A DNA stretch of 64,000 nt from Bacilli bacterium (GTDB lineage: Bacteria > Bacillota_I > Bacilli_A > RF39 > UBA660), in NCBI GenBank assembly GCA_045541255.1, contig JAZQIU010000045.1:2497-66496 (forward strand), read 5' to 3'. Below, in pieces: positions 11,729-46,611 of the stretch (its first letter is position 1; each line of letters starts with the position of its first letter). A model generated the notes under the pieces. It was not told the origin of the DNA. It made no database searches and worked only from the letters and a program-made list of their open reading frames with translations. The position numbers and the translations under genes are program-made.

Positions 11729-12853
11729 ATGATATATTTAGATTATTCTGCTACTACACCAGTATTGCCTGAAGTATTAGATAGTTATAATAAAGTTACT
11801 AATGAGTATTTTGGTAATCCTAATAGTTTACATAACTTAGGTTTGAAATCTCGTGAATTATTAGAGAGTGCAAAGAAACAAGTTAGTGAACTTTTAAATA
11901 TAGATATGAGTGAATTTAGTTTTACTAGTGGCGCAACTGAGAGTAATAATCTTGCTTTAATAGGTGCTTGTATGGCTAATAAAGGAAATGGCAATCATAT
12001 AATAGTTTCTAAATTAGAACATCCTAGTATTTATGCTATAGTTGATTATTTGGTTAGTATTGGTTATAAGGTTAGTTATGTTAATAATACTGAAGAAGGC
12101 GTTATTGATTTTGAAGATCTTAAAAGTAAACTAAATGAAGATACTATTTTAGTAAGTATATGTGCTGTTAATAGTGAAACAGGTGTAAGACAACCTTTGA
12201 GAACTATTAAACAAGTTATTAATAAATATAATAAAGATATAATACTTCATAGTGATATTACTCAAGCTTTAGGTAAAATTTCAATTAATTTTAATGATTT
12301 TGATTTAGCAAGTGCAAGTGGGCATAAAATATATGCACCAAAAGGAATAGGTTTATTTTATAAAAAGAAAAATGTTAAATGTCAAAAATTATTGCATGGT
12401 AATAAAGATGAATTTCATCCAGGCACTCCAGCTTTACCTTTAATAGTTTCTTTTGCTAAGGCTTTAAGAATATCTTTACATGAGTTAGATAAAAAAGTCG
12501 ATATAGTAACTAAATGGAATGAAAAAGTTATTAAAAATATAAGTAAGTTTGAGGGTATTAAAATTAATAATAGTAAGTATTGTATTCCACATATAATAAA
12601 TGTAAGTTTAATGGATATAAAACCAGAAACATTTATACATGCTATGGAAAGACATGAAATATATATTTCTAGTAATACAGCATGTAGTAGTGGAAAATTA
12701 TCTACAAGTGTTATGGCTTTATATAATGATAGAAAAAGAGCAGAAACTACAATACGTATAAGTTTATCATGTTTAACTAAATTAGAAGAGATAACAGTGT
12801 TCTTAAATACTTTTAATGGAGTATATGAAAAACTACATTCTTTAAATGATTAG
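11729..12853 (+). CDS. cysteine desulfurase (NifS/IscS class V aminotransferase)
   Basis: ATG at 11729 gives 'MIYLDYSATTP'. PLP lysine 'SGHKIYAPKGIG' and active-site Cys region 'SSNTACSSG' are present. Confidence 0.85.
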   Translation: MIYLDYSATTPVLPEVLDSYNKVTNEYFGNPNSLHNLGLKSRELLESAKKQVSELLNIDMSEFSFTSGATESNNLALIGACMANKGNGNHIIVSKLEHPSIYAIVDYLVSIGYKVSYVNNTEEGVIDFEDLKSKLNEDTILVSICAVNSETGVRQPLRTIKQVINKYNKDIILHSDITQALGKISINFNDFDLASASGHKIYAPKGIGLFYKKKNVKCQKLLHGNKDEFHPGTPALPLIVSFAKALRISLHELDKKVDIVTKWNEKVIKNISKFEGIKINNSKYCIPHIINVSLMDIKPETFIHAMERHEIYISSNTACSSGKLSTSVMALYNDRKRAETTIRISLSCLTKLEEITVFLNTFNGVYEKLHSLND

Positions 12854-12993
12854 AATGTAGTTTTTATATGAAATATAATATAAAATATTGTTGTTATTTT
12901 ATATAGATGTATGTTATTATAAATGTTGATATATTTAACATGCGTTAGTTGCACTCCTTAAAATTAAATTTTTAATTTTAAGGAGGTGAGTGT

Positions 12994-13071
12994 ATGACTA
13001 TAAGAGAGAAAACTCTATATTTCATAATACTTCTTCTATTTATTTTAGTATTTATACTATTATTTAGATAG
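12994..13071 (+). CDS. 25-aa hydrophobic peptide (candidate type I toxin)
   Basis: AAGGAGG RBS then ATG gives MTIREKTLYFIILLLFILVFILLFR. The RBS lies in the hairpin CTCCTTAAAATTAAA/TTAATTTTAAGGAG. The peptide is conserved in copy B. Confidence 0.5.
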   Translation: MTIREKTLYFIILLLFILVFILLFR

Positions 13072-13146
13072 AAAAAAAGCACACTAACGGGTTTTGGTTT
13101 AAGTTAGTGTGCACAAACCAATTTAGGAGTGTACCTAACATCCCAC
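13072..13146 (-). ncRNA. candidate antisense RNA overlapping the 3' UTR of the 25-aa ORF
   Basis: Hairpin GCACACTAAC/GTTAGTGTGC (13079-13112) is preceded on the + strand by A7, so it is an intrinsic terminator on the - strand. A TATACT -10-like hexamer sits at 13153-13158 on the - strand. The 5' end is a guess. Confidence 0.4.
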
Positions 13147-13225
13147 ATGTTAAGTATATCCTTTTTTATTTTATGCAAAATTTCTTGCTAAATACATATT
13201 ATCATATTAGTATTATTTAGTCAAT

Positions 13226-13642
13226 TTAACTAAATAAGTTTTCATGATATCTTATATCATATTCACTTTGAATAATACATAAGTCATTTTTTTGTTTAAA
13301 TGTATGAAATATGTTGTTTGAATTTATTATAAATGGTAGTGAATTACCATTTTTAAAATTTATAATAATACTTTCTATATTTTTTTCTTCTTTAATTAAA
13401 TTAAATGCATTTTCTTCTAATTGTTTATTTGTTAAATTATATTCAATTATTTTATTTTTTAATTTTATCATAAAGAAGTTACTTATTAATGAATGATTGT
13501 AATCATCTTCTTTGTATGGTATTTCATCTCCATTATCATCTATATTTGATATATATAGATTACTAAACATTTTGTTATTGGCGATAATTGTTTTATTATT
13601 TTCAAGATTGATAATTATATTTTCTATTGATTCATTACTCAT
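13226..13642 (-). CDS. hypothetical protein
   Basis: 138-aa ORF with an RBS-like GGTGAT upstream and no recognisable motif. Confidence 0.45.
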   Translation of the reverse strand: MSNESIENIIINLENNKTIIANNKMFSNLYISNIDDNGDEIPYKEDDYNHSLISNFFMIKLKNKIIEYNLTNKQLEENAFNLIKEEKNIESIIINFKNGNSLPFIINSNNIFHTFKQKNDLCIIQSEYDIRYHENLFS

Positions 13643-13784: not shown

Positions 13785-13861
13785 GCGCTCTTAGCTCAAT
13801 TGGATAGAGCGTTAGACTACGGATCTAAAGGTTAGGGGTTCGACTCCCTTAGGGCGCACCA
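13785..13861 (+). tRNA. tRNA-Arg (anticodon ACG)
   Basis: Cloverleaf folded by hand: acceptor GCGCTCT/AGGGCGC, D-arm GCTC/GAGC, anticodon stem TTAGA/TCTAA with loop CTACGGA, T-arm AGGGG-TTCGACT-CCCTT, encoded CCA. Confidence 0.9.
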
Positions 13862-16036: not shown

Positions 16037-16066
16037 TTGTATTATGATTTATGTATAAGGTATGAT
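16037..16066 (+). promoter_or_regulatory. candidate promoter of orphan pilin gene
   Basis: TTGTAT, 18-nt spacer, TATGAT. Confidence 0.4.
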
Positions 16067-16094
16067 AATACTTATAAGAAAGGTAGGAAAAATA

Positions 16095-16556
16095 ATGAAA
16101 AGATTAAATAAGAAAGGTTTTACATTAGTTGAATTATTAGCAGTAATCGTTGTATTAGCTTTATTAATGGTTGTTGCTGCAAGTAGTATTGGTACTGCTT
16201 TAGACAATTCTAAGAAAAAAGCTTTATTAACTGAAACTCAAAAATTAATTACTAATATTACTGGTGAAGCTCAATCTTTAAAATTAATGGGAAGCTTAAA
16301 TGCTACTAATAAATTAGGTAGTGCATATAATGGTAAAGATGGAGATTATGCGTATAGTGTTACAGTTAATACTCATGGATATATTACTGCATTAACAGTA
16401 TGTTATGGTACTGATTATAAAGCAGTAGCTGAAATTACAACATCTAGTGATGGGTATACAACTACAGTAAAAGCTCCAGCAACAGCAACTGAAATTGCTT
16501 CTGGAGAAACTGTTTGTACTAGTTCATTTGCTGGAAGCGTTACAATTAGTGACTAA
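16095..16556 (+). CDS. type IV pilin / ComGC-like pseudopilin (prepilin-type N-terminal methylation domain)
   Basis: ATG at 16095 gives 'MKRLNKKG/FTLVELLAVIVVLALLMVVA', a canonical G/FTLxE prepilin leader. Confidence 0.85.
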   Translation: MKRLNKKGFTLVELLAVIVVLALLMVVAASSIGTALDNSKKKALLTETQKLITNITGEAQSLKLMGSLNATNKLGSAYNGKDGDYAYSVTVNTHGYITALTVCYGTDYKAVAEITTSSDGYTTTVKAPATATEIASGETVCTSSFAGSVTISD

Positions 16557-16643: not shown

Positions 16644-16720
16644 CGAGAAGTAGCACAGCTTGGTAGTGCACTTGGTTTGGGACCAAGGGGTCGCAGGTTC
16701 GAATCCTGTCTTCTCGACCA
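16644..16720 (+). tRNA. tRNA-Pro (anticodon TGG)
   Basis: Acceptor CGAGAAG/CTTCTCG, anticodon stem CTTGG/CCAAG with loop TTTGGGA, T-loop GGTTCGAATCC, encoded CCA. Confidence 0.9.
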
Positions 16721-26108: not shown

Positions 26109-26210
26109 ATGAGCCACGGAACTTGCGGTCAAAATGGTGGTATAAGTGCTGCTGCATTTATATTAGTACTATTCATTTTATTAATTATCATTGTAGGGGC
26201 TTTTATTTAA
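26109..26210 (+). CDS. tiny TM protein, YjcZ-like family
   Basis: GGAGGGG RBS then MSHGTCGQNGGISAAAFILVLFILLIIIVGAFI. The Gly-rich head plus 'FILVLFILLII' tail matches the YjcZ tiny-TM pattern. Confidence 0.6.
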   Translation: MSHGTCGQNGGISAAAFILVLFILLIIIVGAFI

Positions 26211-26222
26211 GGAGGGAATGCT

Positions 26223-26345
26223 ATGAATAAACCATCTTGTAATAATAATAGTACTTGCAATAATAATAGATTTGGAGACTTATTTATTATTTTAGTTTTA
26301 TTTATTTTGTTAGCTATTATTGTTAGTGCTGTGTTTACTTATTAA
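26223..26345 (+). CDS. tiny TM protein, YjcZ-like family (tandem paralogue)
   Basis: GGAGGG RBS then MNKPSCNNNSTCNNNRFGDLFIILVLFILLAIIVSAVFTY. Confidence 0.55.
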   Translation: MNKPSCNNNSTCNNNRFGDLFIILVLFILLAIIVSAVFTY

Positions 26346-26409
26346 AGAGGGAAACCTCTTTTTTTTTATAGTTCATTATGTTAAAATTAATATGATAGAG
26401 GGTGCTAAT

Positions 26410-28164
26410 ATGTTTGGACAATTATTAGATGTTTATGATAATTATGCAATAATAGAAAATAAAACTGGACAAATTGAAACTAATTATTTAAATTTGCATG
26501 TTATATTTCATGATAATAACAGAAAAGTAGTAGGAGAGATAGTTTCTATTGATAAGAGTACTATTAAAATATTGTTAATTGGAGAAATAGTTAATGATAT
26601 TTTTATAAATGGTATTGTTAGAAAACCAAATTTAAGTGGTGGTTGTAGAATAATATATAAGAGTGAAGTAGAGTTATTATTGGGTAACCAAGAAATAGAT
26701 TCTGTTGATTCATTTTATATAGGAAAATCATTAGTATATGATGGTTTTAATATTACTAGTAAGTTTAATGATTTTTTTTCAAATCATTTTGCAATAATAG
26801 GGAATACTGGTAGTGGTAAGAGTTGTGGAGTTGCTAGAATATTGCAAAATATATTTTATAAAAGTAATTCAAATATGCCAAAAAATGCACATATAGTTTT
26901 GTTTGATGTTTATGGTGAATATAATAAGGCTTTTAATGAATTAAATAGTATAAATGGTATGGGATTTAGAAATTATTCTTCTAAAGTAGATTTAAGTGAA
27001 GGGGAATTAATTAATATTCCAGCATATTTCTTAGGAGTAGATGATTTAGCTTTACTTTTAAATGTTACTAGTCCTAATCAATTACCTATTTTAGAAAAAA
27101 CATTAAAATTAGTTTATATTTTTAAAAATGTTGATGAAAATATTAGTAAATATAAAAATGATATTATTGCAAACTGTTTATTAGATATTTTAACTAGTGG
27201 TAGAACTAGTACACAAATAAGAGATCAAATTATTGCTGTATTAACAAGATATAATACTGATACATTAAATTTAGATACAGAAATAGCACAACCTGGTTAT
27301 ACTAGAACTATTAGACAATGTTTAAATATAGATAATACAGGGAAAATGAATTCTGTTCAATATGTTGTAGATTTATTAGAAAAATATACTAAGTTAGATT
27401 TGGGTAATATTAATGGTATACCTAATTTCATTTATACTTTAGATGATATATATTATGCGTTAGATTTTGCTCTTATAAGCGAAGGGGTTTTAAAGAGCGA
27501 TAAAATGTATGATGAATATAATCAATTAAAAGTACGTTTACAACAAATTATTAATAGTGATTATAAACATTTCTTTAATGTAAGTGAATTTATTTCTAAG
27601 GGAGAATATGTTAGAAATTTGTTTAATAGTAATAAGAGTTATCAGATAATTAATTTTAATTTAAATTGTATAGATGAACGTTTTGCTAAAAAGTTAACTA
27701 AAATATATTCTAAATTATTCTTTGATTTTTCTACTTTTATAGAGGATAGAGGAAGTTTTCCAATACATATAATTTTAGAAGAAGCACATAGATATGTACA
27801 ACATGATACTGATATAGATGTATTAGGGTATAATATTTTTGATAGAATTACTAAAGAGGGTAGAAAGTATGGTGTTCTACTTGGGATGATTACTCAAAGA
27901 CCTAGTGAATTGTCTATCACTGCTTTAAGTCAATGTTCAAACTTTATAGTTTTAAGAATGTTTTATCCAGATGATTTAAATATAATTAAATCTATTACTA
28001 GTAATTTGACTGATAGTACTTATGAGAAGATAAAATCATTTTTACCTGGAAATGCTTTAGTATTTGGTACATCATTCAAATTACCTTTAATGGTAAAATT
28101 AGATTTACCTAATCCAATGCCTGAAAGCACTAGTGTAAATATTAGTGATAGTTGGTATAAGTAA
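26410..28164 (+). CDS. HerA/FtsK-superfamily (DUF87-type) ATPase
   Basis: ATG at 26410 after GAGGG. Walker A 'IIGNTGSGKS', Walker B 'IHIILEEAHRYV', and the HerA-like tail 'EGRKYGVLLGMITQRPSELSITALSQCSNFIVLRM'. Confidence 0.75.
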   Translation: MFGQLLDVYDNYAIIENKTGQIETNYLNLHVIFHDNNRKVVGEIVSIDKSTIKILLIGEIVNDIFINGIVRKPNLSGGCRIIYKSEVELLLGNQEIDSVDSFYIGKSLVYDGFNITSKFNDFFSNHFAIIGNTGSGKSCGVARILQNIFYKSNSNMPKNAHIVLFDVYGEYNKAFNELNSINGMGFRNYSSKVDLSEGELINIPAYFLGVDDLALLLNVTSPNQLPILEKTLKLVYIFKNVDENISKYKNDIIANCLLDILTSGRTSTQIRDQIIAVLTRYNTDTLNLDTEIAQPGYTRTIRQCLNIDNTGKMNSVQYVVDLLEKYTKLDLGNINGIPNFIYTLDDIYYALDFALISEGVLKSDKMYDEYNQLKVRLQQIINSDYKHFFNVSEFISKGEYVRNLFNSNKSYQIINFNLNCIDERFAKKLTKIYSKLFFDFSTFIEDRGSFPIHIILEEAHRYVQHDTDIDVLGYNIFDRITKEGRKYGVLLGMITQRPSELSITALSQCSNFIVLRMFYPDDLNIIKSITSNLTDSTYEKIKSFLPGNALVFGTSFKLPLMVKLDLPNPMPESTSVNISDSWYK

Positions 28165-28244
28165 TATTTGTTAAATTTTATAATTTATAATACAATGTAT
28201 TTAGCAAGAGAGCTTGCATAAAATAAAAAGGATATACTTAACAT

Positions 28245-28319
28245 TTGCGGTGTTAGGTACACTCCTAATATTTGGTTGTGCACACTAACTTAAACCAAAA
28301 CCCGTTAGTGTGCTTTTTT
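28245..28319 (+). ncRNA. candidate antisense RNA to the 3' UTR of the 28320..28397 ORF
   Basis: TATACT hexamer (28233-28238), then hairpin GCACACTAAC/GTTAGTGTGC (28280-28313) followed by T6. This is an intrinsic terminator ending at the ORF stop codon. Confidence 0.4.
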
Positions 28320-28397
28320 CTATCTAAATAATAGTATAAATACTAAAATAAATAGAAGAAGTATTATGAAATAAAAAGTTTTTTCTCTAGTAGTCAT
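28320..28397 (-). CDS. 25-aa hydrophobic peptide (candidate type I toxin), paralogue of 12994..13071
   Basis: MTTREKTFYFIILLLFILVFILLFR. It differs from copy A at I3T and L8F plus one synonymous change. The hydrophobic core is identical. Confidence 0.5.
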   Translation of the reverse strand: MTTREKTFYFIILLLFILVFILLFR

Positions 28398-28515
28398 AAC
28401 CTCACCTCTTTAAAATTAATTGTAAGGAGTGCAACTAACGCATGTTAAACATATCATTGAATATGATTATATACTTGTATTTTTATACAAGTTATTTTTA
28501 TGTAATTTTACAAAT

Positions 28516-37196: not shown

Positions 37197-37221
37197 AAAG
37201 TTGTTTGTTAACAACTTTTTT
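37195..37221 (+). terminator. intrinsic terminator after infB
   Basis: AAAAGTTGTT-tgtt-AACAACTTTT followed by a T-run. Confidence 0.7.
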
Positions 37222-37230
37222 TGTATTGTT

Positions 37231-37259
37231 TTGTCAAATGATTTGAAATAAATTATAGT
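37231..37259 (+). promoter_or_regulatory. sense promoter of family-2 element copy 1
   Basis: TTGTCA (37231-37236), 17-nt spacer, TATAGT (37254-37259). Confidence 0.6.
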
Positions 37260-37336
37260 TAGTTTATAATAACTAACCGAACATTCAATTAGTTAATGCC
37301 TGCCTCATACTTGAAAGATAGAAAGAGGTTTGATAT

Positions 37337-37423
37337 ATGAGTATAAAAAGTTTCTTGATAAAAGTACTTGATAGACTTATTATCATTTTATCTTTAATCC
37401 TCCTACAAGGGTTTTGGAGATAA
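37337..37423 (+). CDS. 28-aa hydrophobic peptide (candidate type I toxin)
   Basis: AAGAGG RBS then MSIKSFLIKVLDRLIIILSLILLQGFWR. The peptide is identical in copy 2 despite two nucleotide changes, both synonymous. Confidence 0.55.
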   Translation: MSIKSFLIKVLDRLIIILSLILLQGFWR

Positions 37424-37503
37424 AAAAACGACATTAACCGATGGTTAATGTCTAACCCAATGAGGTAGACATTCAACTTGGACATTGAATGTTCTATCTT
37501 CAT
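37422..37503 (-). ncRNA. candidate antisense RNA (about 80 nt) to the 3' UTR of the 28-aa ORF
   Basis: A - strand promoter lies at 37510-37538. The - strand terminator is GACATTAACC-atc-GGTTAATGTC followed by T-rich 'GTTTTTTT', ending at the ORF stop. Confidence 0.5.
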
Positions 37504-37509
37504 AAGTTA

Positions 37510-37538
37510 ATTTTAACATATTATAAATATTGTGTCAA
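37510..37538 (-). promoter_or_regulatory. antisense promoter of family-2 element copy 1
   Basis: On the - strand: TTGACA (37538-37533), 17-nt spacer, TAAAAT (37515-37510). Confidence 0.6.
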
Positions 37539-37582
37539 AAAGTTATTAATGGTAAAATATAGATAGAAATGAGGGAAAAATC

Positions 37583-46208: not shown

Positions 46209-46233
46209 AAGATAGTTTTTTCTATCTTTTTTT
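46208..46233 (+). terminator. intrinsic terminator after polA
   Basis: AAAGATAG-tttttt-CTATCTTT followed by a T-run. Confidence 0.7.
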
Positions 46234-46241
46234 GTAATGTT

Positions 46242-46270
46242 TTGTCGAATAATTTGAAATAAATTATAGT
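46242..46270 (+). promoter_or_regulatory. sense promoter of family-2 element copy 2
   Basis: TTGTCG, 17-nt spacer, TATAGT. Confidence 0.55.
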
Positions 46271-46348
46271 TAGTTTATAATAACTAACCGAACATTCAAT
46301 TAGTTAATGCCTGCCTCTTATTTAAAAAAAAGAAAAGAGGTTTGATAA

Positions 46349-46435
46349 ATGAGTATAAAAAGTTTCTTAATAAAAGTGCTTGATAGACTTATTATCATTT
46401 TATCTTTAATCCTCCTACAAGGGTTTTGGAGATAA
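46349..46435 (+). CDS. 28-aa hydrophobic peptide (candidate type I toxin), identical to 37337..37423 product
   Basis: MSIKSFLIKVLDRLIIILSLILLQGFWR. Codon 7 is TTA vs TTG and codon 10 is GTG vs GTA; both changes are synonymous. Confidence 0.55.
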   Translation: MSIKSFLIKVLDRLIIILSLILLQGFWR

Positions 46436-46510
46436 AAAATGACATTAACCAAAGGTTAATGTCTCACCACTTGAGGTAGGCATTCAATCTTCGCAATTGA
46501 ATGTTCTACT
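46434..46510 (-). ncRNA. candidate antisense RNA, copy 2
   Basis: The - strand promoter is TTGACA (46545-46540), 17-nt spacer, TACTAT (46522-46517). The terminator is GACATTAACC-ttt-GGTTAATGTC followed by T-rich 'ATTTTTT' on the - strand. Confidence 0.5.
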
Positions 46511-46516
46511 AATTAA

Positions 46517-46545
46517 ATAGTATCAAAGAAGAGTTGTGTTGTCAA
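46517..46545 (-). promoter_or_regulatory. antisense promoter of family-2 element copy 2
   Basis: TTGACA-17-TACTAT on the - strand. The position is equivalent to copy 1 although the sequence differs. Confidence 0.55.
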
Positions 46546-46611
46546 ATCTTCTTTTTTTTGTTATAATCAATATACCTTTTAAAACTTTTATTAATTATTT
46601 TTTAGAAAGAG

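Follow-up and report, generated by a model that had tools for sequence, protein, structure and literature searches.

The question raised by positions 12891-13224 (+) of contig stretch JAZQIU010000045.1 from a Bacilli bacterium (64,000 nt analysed as a whole and called the window here; 25.5% GC) is whether a 25-codon open reading frame (ORF), whose ribosome-binding site appears to be locked in RNA structure, is the toxin gene of a type I toxin-antitoxin (TA) locus. This block is referred to as copy A of the module. Copy B lies on the opposite strand of the window, so that two copies of a ~350-bp cassette occur within 64 kb; the (-) strand block 28195-28456 was 89% identical to copy A over 272 nt, and the flanks were unrelated. 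The elements described below exist, are conserved and co-vary among the copies and their homologues. From them, and by analogy with characterised systems, we infer antisense transcription, an order of folding, the ribonucleases (RNases) involved and the toxicity of the peptide. The data suggest, with fair though incomplete confidence, that the module is a chromosomal type I TA locus of a previously undescribed sequence family.

The ORF of copy A spans 12994-13071 (+) and encodes MTIREKTLYFIILLLFILVFILLFR, a peptide whose N-terminus is short and polar and is followed by a single hydrophobic stretch of transmembrane length and a terminal R; 19 of the 25 residues are hydrophobic. It is preceded by the Shine-Dalgarno (SD) sequence AAGGAGG (12980-12986, +), with a 7-nt spacer before the ATG at 12994. 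A preliminary description of the window, made from the sequence alone, had reported this AAGGAGG-ATG ORF together with a ribosome-binding site buried in a hairpin, an A7 run and a hairpin directly after the stop codon that would act as an intrinsic terminator on the (-) strand, an imperfect stem with a T-run ending the sense transcript, and an alternative pairing of a 5' with a 3' segment. Each of these elements was found, and their positions and energies are given where they are discussed.

Homologues were gathered by several routes. L001 came from one 'Bacilli bacterium' metagenome-assembled genome, found when genomes representing one species each were scanned with a 24-mer taken from the non-coding post-stop hairpin; its module occupies the same place as copy A. 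L004, L006 and L007 were taken from contigs encoding the neighbouring L28 protein and are orthologues of copy B, and L008 and L009, from contigs with close homologues of the neighbouring cysteine desulfurase, represent a further copy-A variant. The much more distant members L002 and L003 were retrieved by scanning metagenomes for a degenerate pattern of residues 11-21, so that conservation of those 11 residues is by construction in these two; the other homologues are free of ORF-search bias. Related sequence was present in bovine, sheep and other gut metagenome runs. No match was found in the metagenome scan with a 22-nt 5' motif, in the viral-contig scan with the degenerate ORF pattern or in the plasmid collection, and the phage collection gave only two short AT-rich matches of 43-55 nt, which were regarded as chance. 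Since MAFFT misaligned L003 at its 5' end, a hand-made register was used to count helices across L002 and L003; it shows helices at equivalent places rather than column-by-column homology, and per-lineage shuffle tests served as the unbiased control for these counts.

Conservation of the ORF had been named in advance as the observation on which the TA reading depended. A 25-codon ORF with an SD was present in copy A, L001, L008/9, copy B, L006/7, L003 and L002. The ATG, a length of exactly 25 codons and the stop codon were kept in seven of the eight copies, including copies found independently of the ORF, and the SD-ATG spacing was 6-7 nt in the six copies whose spacer was counted. The intact homologues share the pattern M-x-x-R-[ED]-x4-5-hydrophobic15-[KR]; the variants were MTLREK... 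(L001), MKQRDNFLSFVIILLFILVFILLFR (L008/9), MTTREKTFYF... (copy B), a V19I change (L006/7), MTNREISLFIIILLLFILVFIILFK (L003) and MTIRERSFFIIILLLFILVFILLFK (L002). Outside the searched stretch, L002 and L003 kept the frame, R4, E/D5, the hydrophobic tail, the terminal K/R and the position of the stop codon. In the distant pairs the ORF was 78-87% identical, compared with 52-64% for the untranslated regions (UTRs). In the copy-B orthologue L004 (985-1302), insertion of 1 nt (TTTATA to TTTAATA) alters the last five residues and gives a C-terminus ...LVFNTII, and two substitutions weaken helix II, described below (duplex -22.7 vs -31.8 kcal/mol). L004 may be a decaying copy or an assembly error.

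A promoter-like site on the sense strand, TTGTTA-18-TATTAT preceded by TG (12891-12920, +), would place the transcription start at ~12927-12928; conservation between copies A and B starts at 12927. Promoter-like sites in L003 (TTGAAA-16-TATACT) and L002 (TTGAAC-18-AATAAT) also put the start at the first base of what we call helix I. The 5' strand of this helix, GATATATTTAACATG (12928-12942, +), is the extreme 5' end of the predicted mRNA, and its partner is CATGTTAAGTATATC (13146-13160), which with the following T6 (13146-13167, +) makes up the right arm of the sense terminator and the end of a ~240-nt transcript. All 15 positions of helix I are paired in copy A, one of them as G-U. Helix II joins GTTAGTTGCACTCCT (12944-12958, +), which ends in a first anti-SD, CUCCU (anti-SD 1, 12954-12958), to AGGAGTGTACCTAAC (13125-13139, +), the left terminator arm, which carries the SD-like decoy AGGAG. 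The sense terminator therefore consists of the imperfect stem of AGGAGTGTACCTAAC with CATGTTAAGTATATC followed by T6 (13125-13167). The alternative pairing of 12944-12958 with 13125-13139 noted earlier proved to be half of a larger closure, in which helices I and II form ~30 bp between the first 31 nt of the transcript and its last ~37 nt.

The closure of copy A was predicted at -34.4 kcal/mol, compared with -11.3 kcal/mol for the terminator hairpin alone and with -8.6 +/- 2.3 kcal/mol in 1000 shuffles (z -11). Across the sequences the 5'-3' duplex ranged from -22.7 to -37.2 kcal/mol, and none of 1000 shuffles reached it in seven of the eight; for L003, part of the 5' strand was cut off by the 36-nt test window. 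The closure was significant in all lineages. The minimum free energy (MFE) of the whole copy-A transcript was -75.9 kcal/mol (z -8.6), and the z-scores in five lineages were -5.9 to -11.4. Helix I was rebuilt with other bases in L002 (13 bp; GAAGATACGTTTT/AAAACGTATCTTC) and in L003 (10 bp; GGATATACCT/AGGTGTATCC). SD-like decoys also occurred in these lineages, as GGAG in L003 and as GAAAGGAA in L002, where it pairs with the anti-SD TTCCTTTC.

The SD itself was predicted to be occluded twice over. In the anti-SD 1/SD hairpin (12954-12985, +; 14 bp, 4-nt loop), which competes with helix II for CUCCU, CTCCTTAAAATTAA (12954-12967; CUCC-UUAAAAUUAA) pairs with TTAATTTTAAGGAG (12972-12985) at -13.9 kcal/mol, and the SD bases have pair probabilities of 0.96-0.99. 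Equivalent hairpins of different sequence were present in L003 (CTCCTTTAC/GTAAAGGAG) and L002 (CCTTTCATGG/CTATGAAAGG). When helix II holds CUCCU, the predicted partner of the SD is anti-SD 2, CUUCUUCU, which lies within the ORF at codons 13-15 (13030-13037, +). SD partners were predicted at nt 95-111 in copy B, L006, L008 and L003, and at the anti-SD 2 position L002 carries CUUCUCCU and L003 CUCCUUCU, through synonymous Leu codons. RNAalifold, run unguided on a plain sequence alignment, recovered helices I and II (helix II as columns 34-48 with 217-231), the SD/anti-SD 2 pairing (columns 71-78 with 118-125) and the post-stop hairpin.

The predicted unpaired probability of the SD was 0.12-0.21 in copy A; across the lineages it was 0.01-0.26 for the SD and <=0.24 for the AUG. 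Among 16 ordinary window genes taken as controls, the medians were 0.42 (SD) and 0.51 (AUG), and none of the 16 was low on both. Whether the RNA was nascent, full-length or blocked at its 3' UTR, the SD was predicted to pair with anti-SD 1 or 2. By folding prediction, then, the primary transcript would be translationally inert. The comparison of homologues that had been suggested as a check returned the SD-occluding structure, helices rebuilt with different bases (all four in L002 and L003) and one C-G to U-A double change. The non-Watson-Crick positions in the helices, read on the sense strand, were 21 G-U against 2 A-C, a bias suggesting that selection has acted on the sense RNA and not on DNA repeats. 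The SD is weaker in copy B and its orthologues (AAAGAGG; AAAGAGA in L006/7; window 28405-28430, -), which also have an 8-nt deletion in the anti-SD 1 hairpin; for these copies the ORF-internal CUUCUUCU is the only predicted partner of the SD.

On the opposite strand, a putative antisense unit was delimited by a terminator and a promoter-like site. Directly after the stop codon, the (+) strand reads A7 (13072-13078), GCACACTAAC (13079-13088), a 14-nt loop and GTTAGTGTGC (13103-13112). This 10-bp hairpin (GCACACTAAC/GTTAGTGTGC; 13072-13112, -) has no T-run after it on the (+) strand and is followed on the (-) strand by T7, which abuts the toxin stop codon. It was kept in all homologues with different sequences (GCGCGCTAATG/CATTAGCGTGC in L003, CATCTGAG/CTCAGATG in L002), in every one preceded by A6-7 (ACAAAA in L002) and without a T-run after it, which argues for a terminator of the (-) strand only. 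Between the orthologues in copy A and L008, the hairpin shows the compensatory C-G to U-A double change. A simple terminator scan missed the copy-A hairpin because its loop is 14 nt; the homologous L003 hairpin, with a 6-nt loop, was called by the scan (0.0 expected by chance). Since the L003 module lies between two co-directional genes, its opposite-strand terminator cannot belong to a convergent gene.

The antisense promoter-like site of copy A, TTGACT-17-TAATAT preceded by TG, lies at 13196-13224 (-), and such sites were present 20-30 nt past the sense T-run in every lineage: the same hexamers with TG in L001, TTGACT-17-TACTAT in L008, TTGTTA-17-TACAAT in copy B, TTGTTT-17-TAATAT with TG in L003 and TTTACA-16-TATAAT in L002. 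The predicted antisense (antitoxin) RNA of copy A is ~118 nt long (13072-13190, -; MFE -32.1, z -3.9), and in the lineages it is about 75-118 nt (z -3.1 to -4.8). It would consist of a 5' stem-loop, a middle stem-loop and the terminator, and would be fully complementary to the toxin mRNA over its entire 3' UTR, stopping at the stop codon with no overlap of the ORF. RNAduplex comparison of the predicted antisense with the first 80-90 nt of the mRNA in four lineages gave nothing better than shuffled antisense (z -0.9 to +0.5). As complementarity did not exceed chance, an Fst- or SprA1-like action of the antisense on the 5' region of the mRNA was rejected, and any antisense action would have to proceed through the 3' overlap. 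A conserved ORF on the antisense strand was also considered and rejected; the (-) strand ORF frames differ between copies A and B.

The start region of the predicted antisense RNA, located past the end of the sense RNA, carries a motif of its own, TTTTATG-N14-CTAAATACAT on the (+) strand (13169-13197, -; consensus TTTTATG-N14-CTARATACAT), which also covers the 5' stem-loop (13175-13188). Two matches were found in the window against 0.01 expected; among the loci it was confined to the modules and was present in all intact ones apart from L002 and the cut-off L007. Identity over this stretch between copy A and L003 was 75%, compared with 60-63% for the UTRs, making it the best-conserved non-coding stretch. 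The motif of window positions 13169-13197 and 28195-28223 recurs at L003:2486-2525. Five short contigs from runs X36 (RNA) and X39 agree with it over a ~40-nt stretch alone, which covers the predicted antisense -10 box, the start, the 5' stem-loop and CATAAAATAT; beyond this stretch they continue into four unrelated sequences. A ~40-nt start element seems to be common to further modules with other bodies.

Transcription was followed in undirected Logan contigs of five RNA runs. Three metatranscriptome contigs, 184-236 nt long, map entirely inside the predicted sense transcript, between 12933 and ~13168. For an L003-like variant in another RNA run, the contigs begin at 2751, <=7 nt from the predicted start, and one of them reads past the weak sense terminator. 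These contigs support transcription of the sense unit and have no bearing on an antisense RNA.

The copy-A site was then compared between strains that differ in the identity of the adjacent desulfurase. Where the desulfurase was 86-89% identical (L010-L016), the site was empty and held only a 30-nt bidirectional terminator (L010:11125-11155, L014:11125-11148); where it was 91-98% identical (window, L001, L008/9), the module was present. Deletion alleles were found in strains with 93-96% identity (L026:2622-2830, L028:2622-2830, L020:2622-2810, L021:2622-2775). L026-29 and L020 represent two independent deletions, in which the sense promoter, the 5' UTR and most of the ORF were lost and the 3' UTR and antisense region were kept. 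In L021-23 nearly everything was lost, and nt ~17 of the 5' UTR is joined to the antisense 5' stem-loop. No allele with an intact ORF and without the antisense region was seen among the strains examined. This pattern is what addiction logic would predict, on three events only and with a kept terminator that may serve the convergent gene. At this site the module replaces the bidirectional terminator of the empty-site strains. The 3' end of the cysteine desulfurase gene (window 12829-12866, +) has its own terminator hairpin, CTACATTCT...AGAATGTAG with a T-run and the stop codon within the stem; it is kept in all strains, and the module is inserted just 3' of it.

Taken as a type I TA locus, the module may work as follows. 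The promoter at ~12891-12920 would drive the ~240-nt mRNA for a 25-residue single-helix membrane peptide, the presumed toxin. In the nascent mRNA, the CUCCU of anti-SD 1 would fold onto the SD in the 14-bp hairpin and block translation. After termination, the 5' end could invade the terminator hairpin (-11.3 kcal/mol) to form the closure (~-34 kcal/mol), in which the 5' end is buried; CUCCU would thereby pass to the 3'-UTR decoy, and the SD would be held by anti-SD 2 or anti-SD 1. We propose that closure and SD pairing together would leave the full-length RNA stable and translationally inert. Both of these steps, the nascent SD hairpin and the 5'-3' closure, are supported by folding prediction and covariation. 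The convergent promoter 20-30 nt past the sense terminator would give rise to the ~118-nt antisense RNA ending at the toxin stop codon, and first contact would probably be made between the complementary 14-nt loops of the post-stop hairpin, from which pairing could spread along the 3' UTR. Such a duplex would displace the mRNA 5' end, open the closure, expose the mRNA to RNase III and to 5'-end decay, and return CUCCU to the SD. Loss of the antisense, or processing of the mRNA, would then allow the 25-residue peptide to be made and to insert into the membrane. Antisense contact, decay and peptide release are modelled here on bsrG/SR4, aapA3 and hok.

These steps together would amount to a relay with three partners, in which CUCCU is shared by the SD and the 3'-UTR decoy and the antisense, by covering the decoy, returns the anti-SD and uncaps the 5' end; we put this forward tentatively and regard it as doubtful. 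It is no less tentative to see in the relay a remote translational control through a circularised mRNA, which would combine the hok/aapA lock with the Gram-positive 3'-antisense layout. Blocking the 3' UTR as a mimic of the antisense barely changed the predicted SD accessibility, and since the SD is already paired in all states the relay is offered only as a possibility.

Several observations weigh against the TA reading. The core conservation in L002 and L003 is partly by construction, the search pattern having forced residues 11-21. In the unbiased pair of copy A and L008, the ORF was 81% identical, no better than the UTRs (84%), and residues 2-9 were almost all replaced while the hydrophobic core was kept; this suggests selection on a polar head and one membrane-spanning helix, not on precise sequence. 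The SD is predicted to be sequestered whether or not the 3' UTR is blocked, which makes an antisense effect on translation no more than plausible. Promoter-like hexamers are common in DNA of 25% GC (8 found vs 5.3 expected). The RNA contigs are undirected, have a depth of 2-4 and may include DNA, and the longest copy-A contig ends at ~13168, before it reaches position 13190, where the antisense RNA is predicted to start. Just upstream of the putative antisense promoter of copies A and B lies the end of a convergent protein gene. This gene might be the one that uses the (-) strand terminator, and the deletion alleles may have retained the terminator for that reason.

This last point leads to an alternative in which the ORF is an ordinary gene for a non-toxic small membrane protein, such as an accessory or regulatory micro-protein, whose mRNA is by coincidence highly structured and stable, the (-) strand hairpin terminates the convergent genes, and any antisense RNA is read-through. 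The convergent genes at 13226-13642 (-) and 26320-28164 (+) end 2-30 nt upstream of the supposed antisense promoter and have no other terminator after insertion of the module; the deletion alleles retain exactly the (-) strand terminator; and other tiny transmembrane ORFs occur in the window, such as 26109-26210. Yet L003, which lies between co-directional genes, has the tool-called opposite-strand terminator and the start motif nonetheless, and a double occlusion of the SD with a 5'-3' closure, found in none of the 16 control genes, is unusual for a protein that is to be made. The module is also multi-copy, variably present and prone to deletion, and a motif conserved past the sense terminator has no role if the product is a non-toxic micro-protein. 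We consider this explanation unlikely, if deserving of attention. A toxin-like peptide under cis mRNA folding only, activated by processing and lacking an RNA antitoxin, as an orphan or stress-induced peptide, would fit the silent SD that folding alone predicts in every conformer and the RNA contigs, which show no sign of the antisense-specific 18 nt. It would not account for the conserved start-region motif, nor for a conserved (-) strand terminator and promoter-like site, which in L003 are not explained by the neighbours, and we judge it improbable. Terminal inverted repeats of a mobile or repeat element resembling a miniature inverted-repeat transposable element could mimic an RNA helix, the ORF being incidental or the unit a structured non-coding RNA: the two strands of helix I form inverted repeats close to the conserved block's ends, the two copies have unrelated flanks and the orthologous site is present or absent, and the inverted-repeat termini of transposons co-vary too. 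However, the conserved block is asymmetric, stopping at the left repeat and running ~40 nt past the right one, and no target-site duplication was seen by eye between filled and empty sites. The excess of G-U over A-C (21:2) on the sense strand, the retention of the ATG, SD spacing, length and stop codon with synonymous changes although the UTRs are only ~55-60% identical, and the lack of matches in the phage and plasmid collections and among viral contigs also speak against a mobile element, and make this explanation very improbable. The type I TA-like reading, for its part, was positive for all of its predictions that could be tested in sequence, the TA label being drawn from the architecture.

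Among known systems, bsrG/SR4, txpA/RatA, bsrE/SR5 and yonT/SR6 of B. subtilis resemble the module in their Firmicute host and small hydrophobic peptide. They have a convergent antisense RNA at the 3' side that works by way of the overlap (PMC8594479, PMC6562991), the layout predicted here, and in the Gram-positive families an antisense RNA on the 3' side is the rule (PMC8594479). In bsrG/SR4, first contact is made between the antitoxin terminator loop and an mRNA loop, and binding at the 3' side changes pairing at the distant SD (PMC3834814, PMC6562991). The complementary 14-nt loops and the CUCCU shared by SD and decoy would allow a relay of this type in the module and invite the comparison. 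The module peptide, at 25 residues, is shorter than bsrH (29 residues, the smallest in the review table) and YonT (58 residues) (PMC6562991, PMC5848175), and the antisense of the B. subtilis families overlaps the ORF end (PMC8594479), whereas that predicted for the module stops at the stop codon. No sequence similarity between these systems and the module was found through Pfam, NCBIfam or Rfam. To our knowledge, no ~30-bp closure between mRNA 5' and 3' ends has been described for the B. subtilis families.

Typical of type I toxin mRNAs is a primary transcript that carries anti-SDs, engages in a 5'-3' interaction and is not translatable (PMC6733600). The inert primary transcript predicted for the module is shared with aapA/IsoA of Helicobacter pylori and hok/Sok of plasmid R1, in which, as here, successive anti-SDs located upstream and within the ORF mask the SD during and after transcription (PMC6733600); a further likeness is that the anti-SD constrains synonymous positions of the ORF. 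Those systems are proteobacterial and have their antisense within the 5' part of the mRNA or the ORF (PMC8594479), whereas the only opposite-strand pair of terminator and promoter in the module lies over the 3' UTR. The long-distance 3' partner in aapA is the anti-SD itself, whereas in the module it is an SD-like decoy that would capture the upstream anti-SD, and activation by 3' trimming, shown for aapA/hok, is only conceivable for the module. Fst/RNAII (par of pAD1) and SprA1/SprA1as are Gram-positive, have a 3'-side antisense that does not overlap the ORF (PMC8594479) and an SD-sequestering stem-loop in the mRNA, all in line with what is predicted for the module. Their functional interaction takes place outside the overlap, at the mRNA 5' region (PMC8594479), whereas none is predicted there in the module, and par has a shared bidirectional terminator, whereas the post-stop hairpin of the module terminates one strand only.

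Searches with the module peptides gave no meaningful family match in Pfam, NCBIfam or PADLOC; when four peptide variants were compared with Pfam-A by hmmscan (E<=10), chance matches (SNARE, Sarcoglycan) were all that appeared, with no Fst, Ldr, HOK_GEF or other toxin domain among them. At the gathering score Rfam reported only the two tRNAs, and at E<=10 only chance matches. An exact look-up of three peptide variants in a collection of 15 billion proteins found none of them, and a literature search for the peptide core found nothing. With no relation in sequence or profile to known toxin or antitoxin families, the module would be a new family within the known type I class.

The preliminary description had also pointed to a second set of loci, family 2, of the same layout as the present family 1 and unrelated to it in sequence. 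The shared layout was confirmed by eye, and the family-1 profile had no match at the family-2 loci, which bears out both statements. Family 2 consists of two intergenic blocks, 37200-37582 and 46212-46611 (+), that are 88% identical and encode the same 28-residue peptide MSIKSFLIKVLDRLIIILSLILLQGFWR (37337-37423, 46349-46435). Each has a weak SD (AAAGAGG), an A-run and hairpin GACATTAACC/GGTTAATGTC after the stop codon, a 5' segment GAACATTCAAT complementary to the 3' segment ATTGAATGTTC, and TTGACA downstream on the (-) strand. The start module on unrelated bodies hints at a wider superfamily of cassettes, including family 2, in uncultured low-GC gut Bacilli.

The remaining features of copy B and of the surroundings are as follows. 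The whole module of copy B spans 28168-28480 (-), with a predicted sense start at ~28455. Helix I is formed by 28455-28442 with 28244-28231 and helix II by 28439-28425 with 28266-28252, the weak SD AAAGAGG lies at 28411-28405, and the ORF at 28397-28320 encodes MTTREKTFYFIILLLFILVFILLFR (all -). An A6 at 28319-28314 and the hairpin at 28313-28280 (-) follow, and the predicted antisense unit on the (+) strand has its promoter at 28168-28196 and its RNA at ~28203-28319. The tRNA-Arg(ACG) gene that lies ~600 nt downstream of copy A (13785-13861, +) showed no link to the module, and neither did tRNA-Pro(UGG) farther along (16644-16720, +) or a gene encoding a prepilin-type N-terminal methylation protein (16062-16556). 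A third small hydrophobic ORF in the window, 26109-26210 (+), has a strong SD and encodes the 33-residue MSHGTCGQNGGISAAAFILVLFILLIIIVGAFI, which has no Pfam match and presumably resembles the tiny YjcZ-like membrane proteins of Bacilli.

The toxins of type I systems fall below the length that gene callers recognise. New families of this type turn up regularly. Few type I TA systems have been experimentally characterised (PMC8594479), and so far they are known only from Proteobacteria, Firmicutes and Tenericutes (2025 paper, PMC12390103). The module stands out by the quality of its structural conservation, its combined design and its natural allele series, in which intact, frameshifted, toxin-deleted, fully deleted and never-occupied alleles show the gain and decay of the cassette. 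Its conserved motifs offer a handle for annotating such loci in metagenome-assembled genomes. If the TA reading is true, the family would come from uncultured, very AT-rich rumen and gut Bacilli and its 25-residue peptides would be among the shortest toxins proposed, and a single Gram-positive locus would unite a hok/aapA-type lock with two anti-SDs and a Bacillus-type 3' antitoxin.

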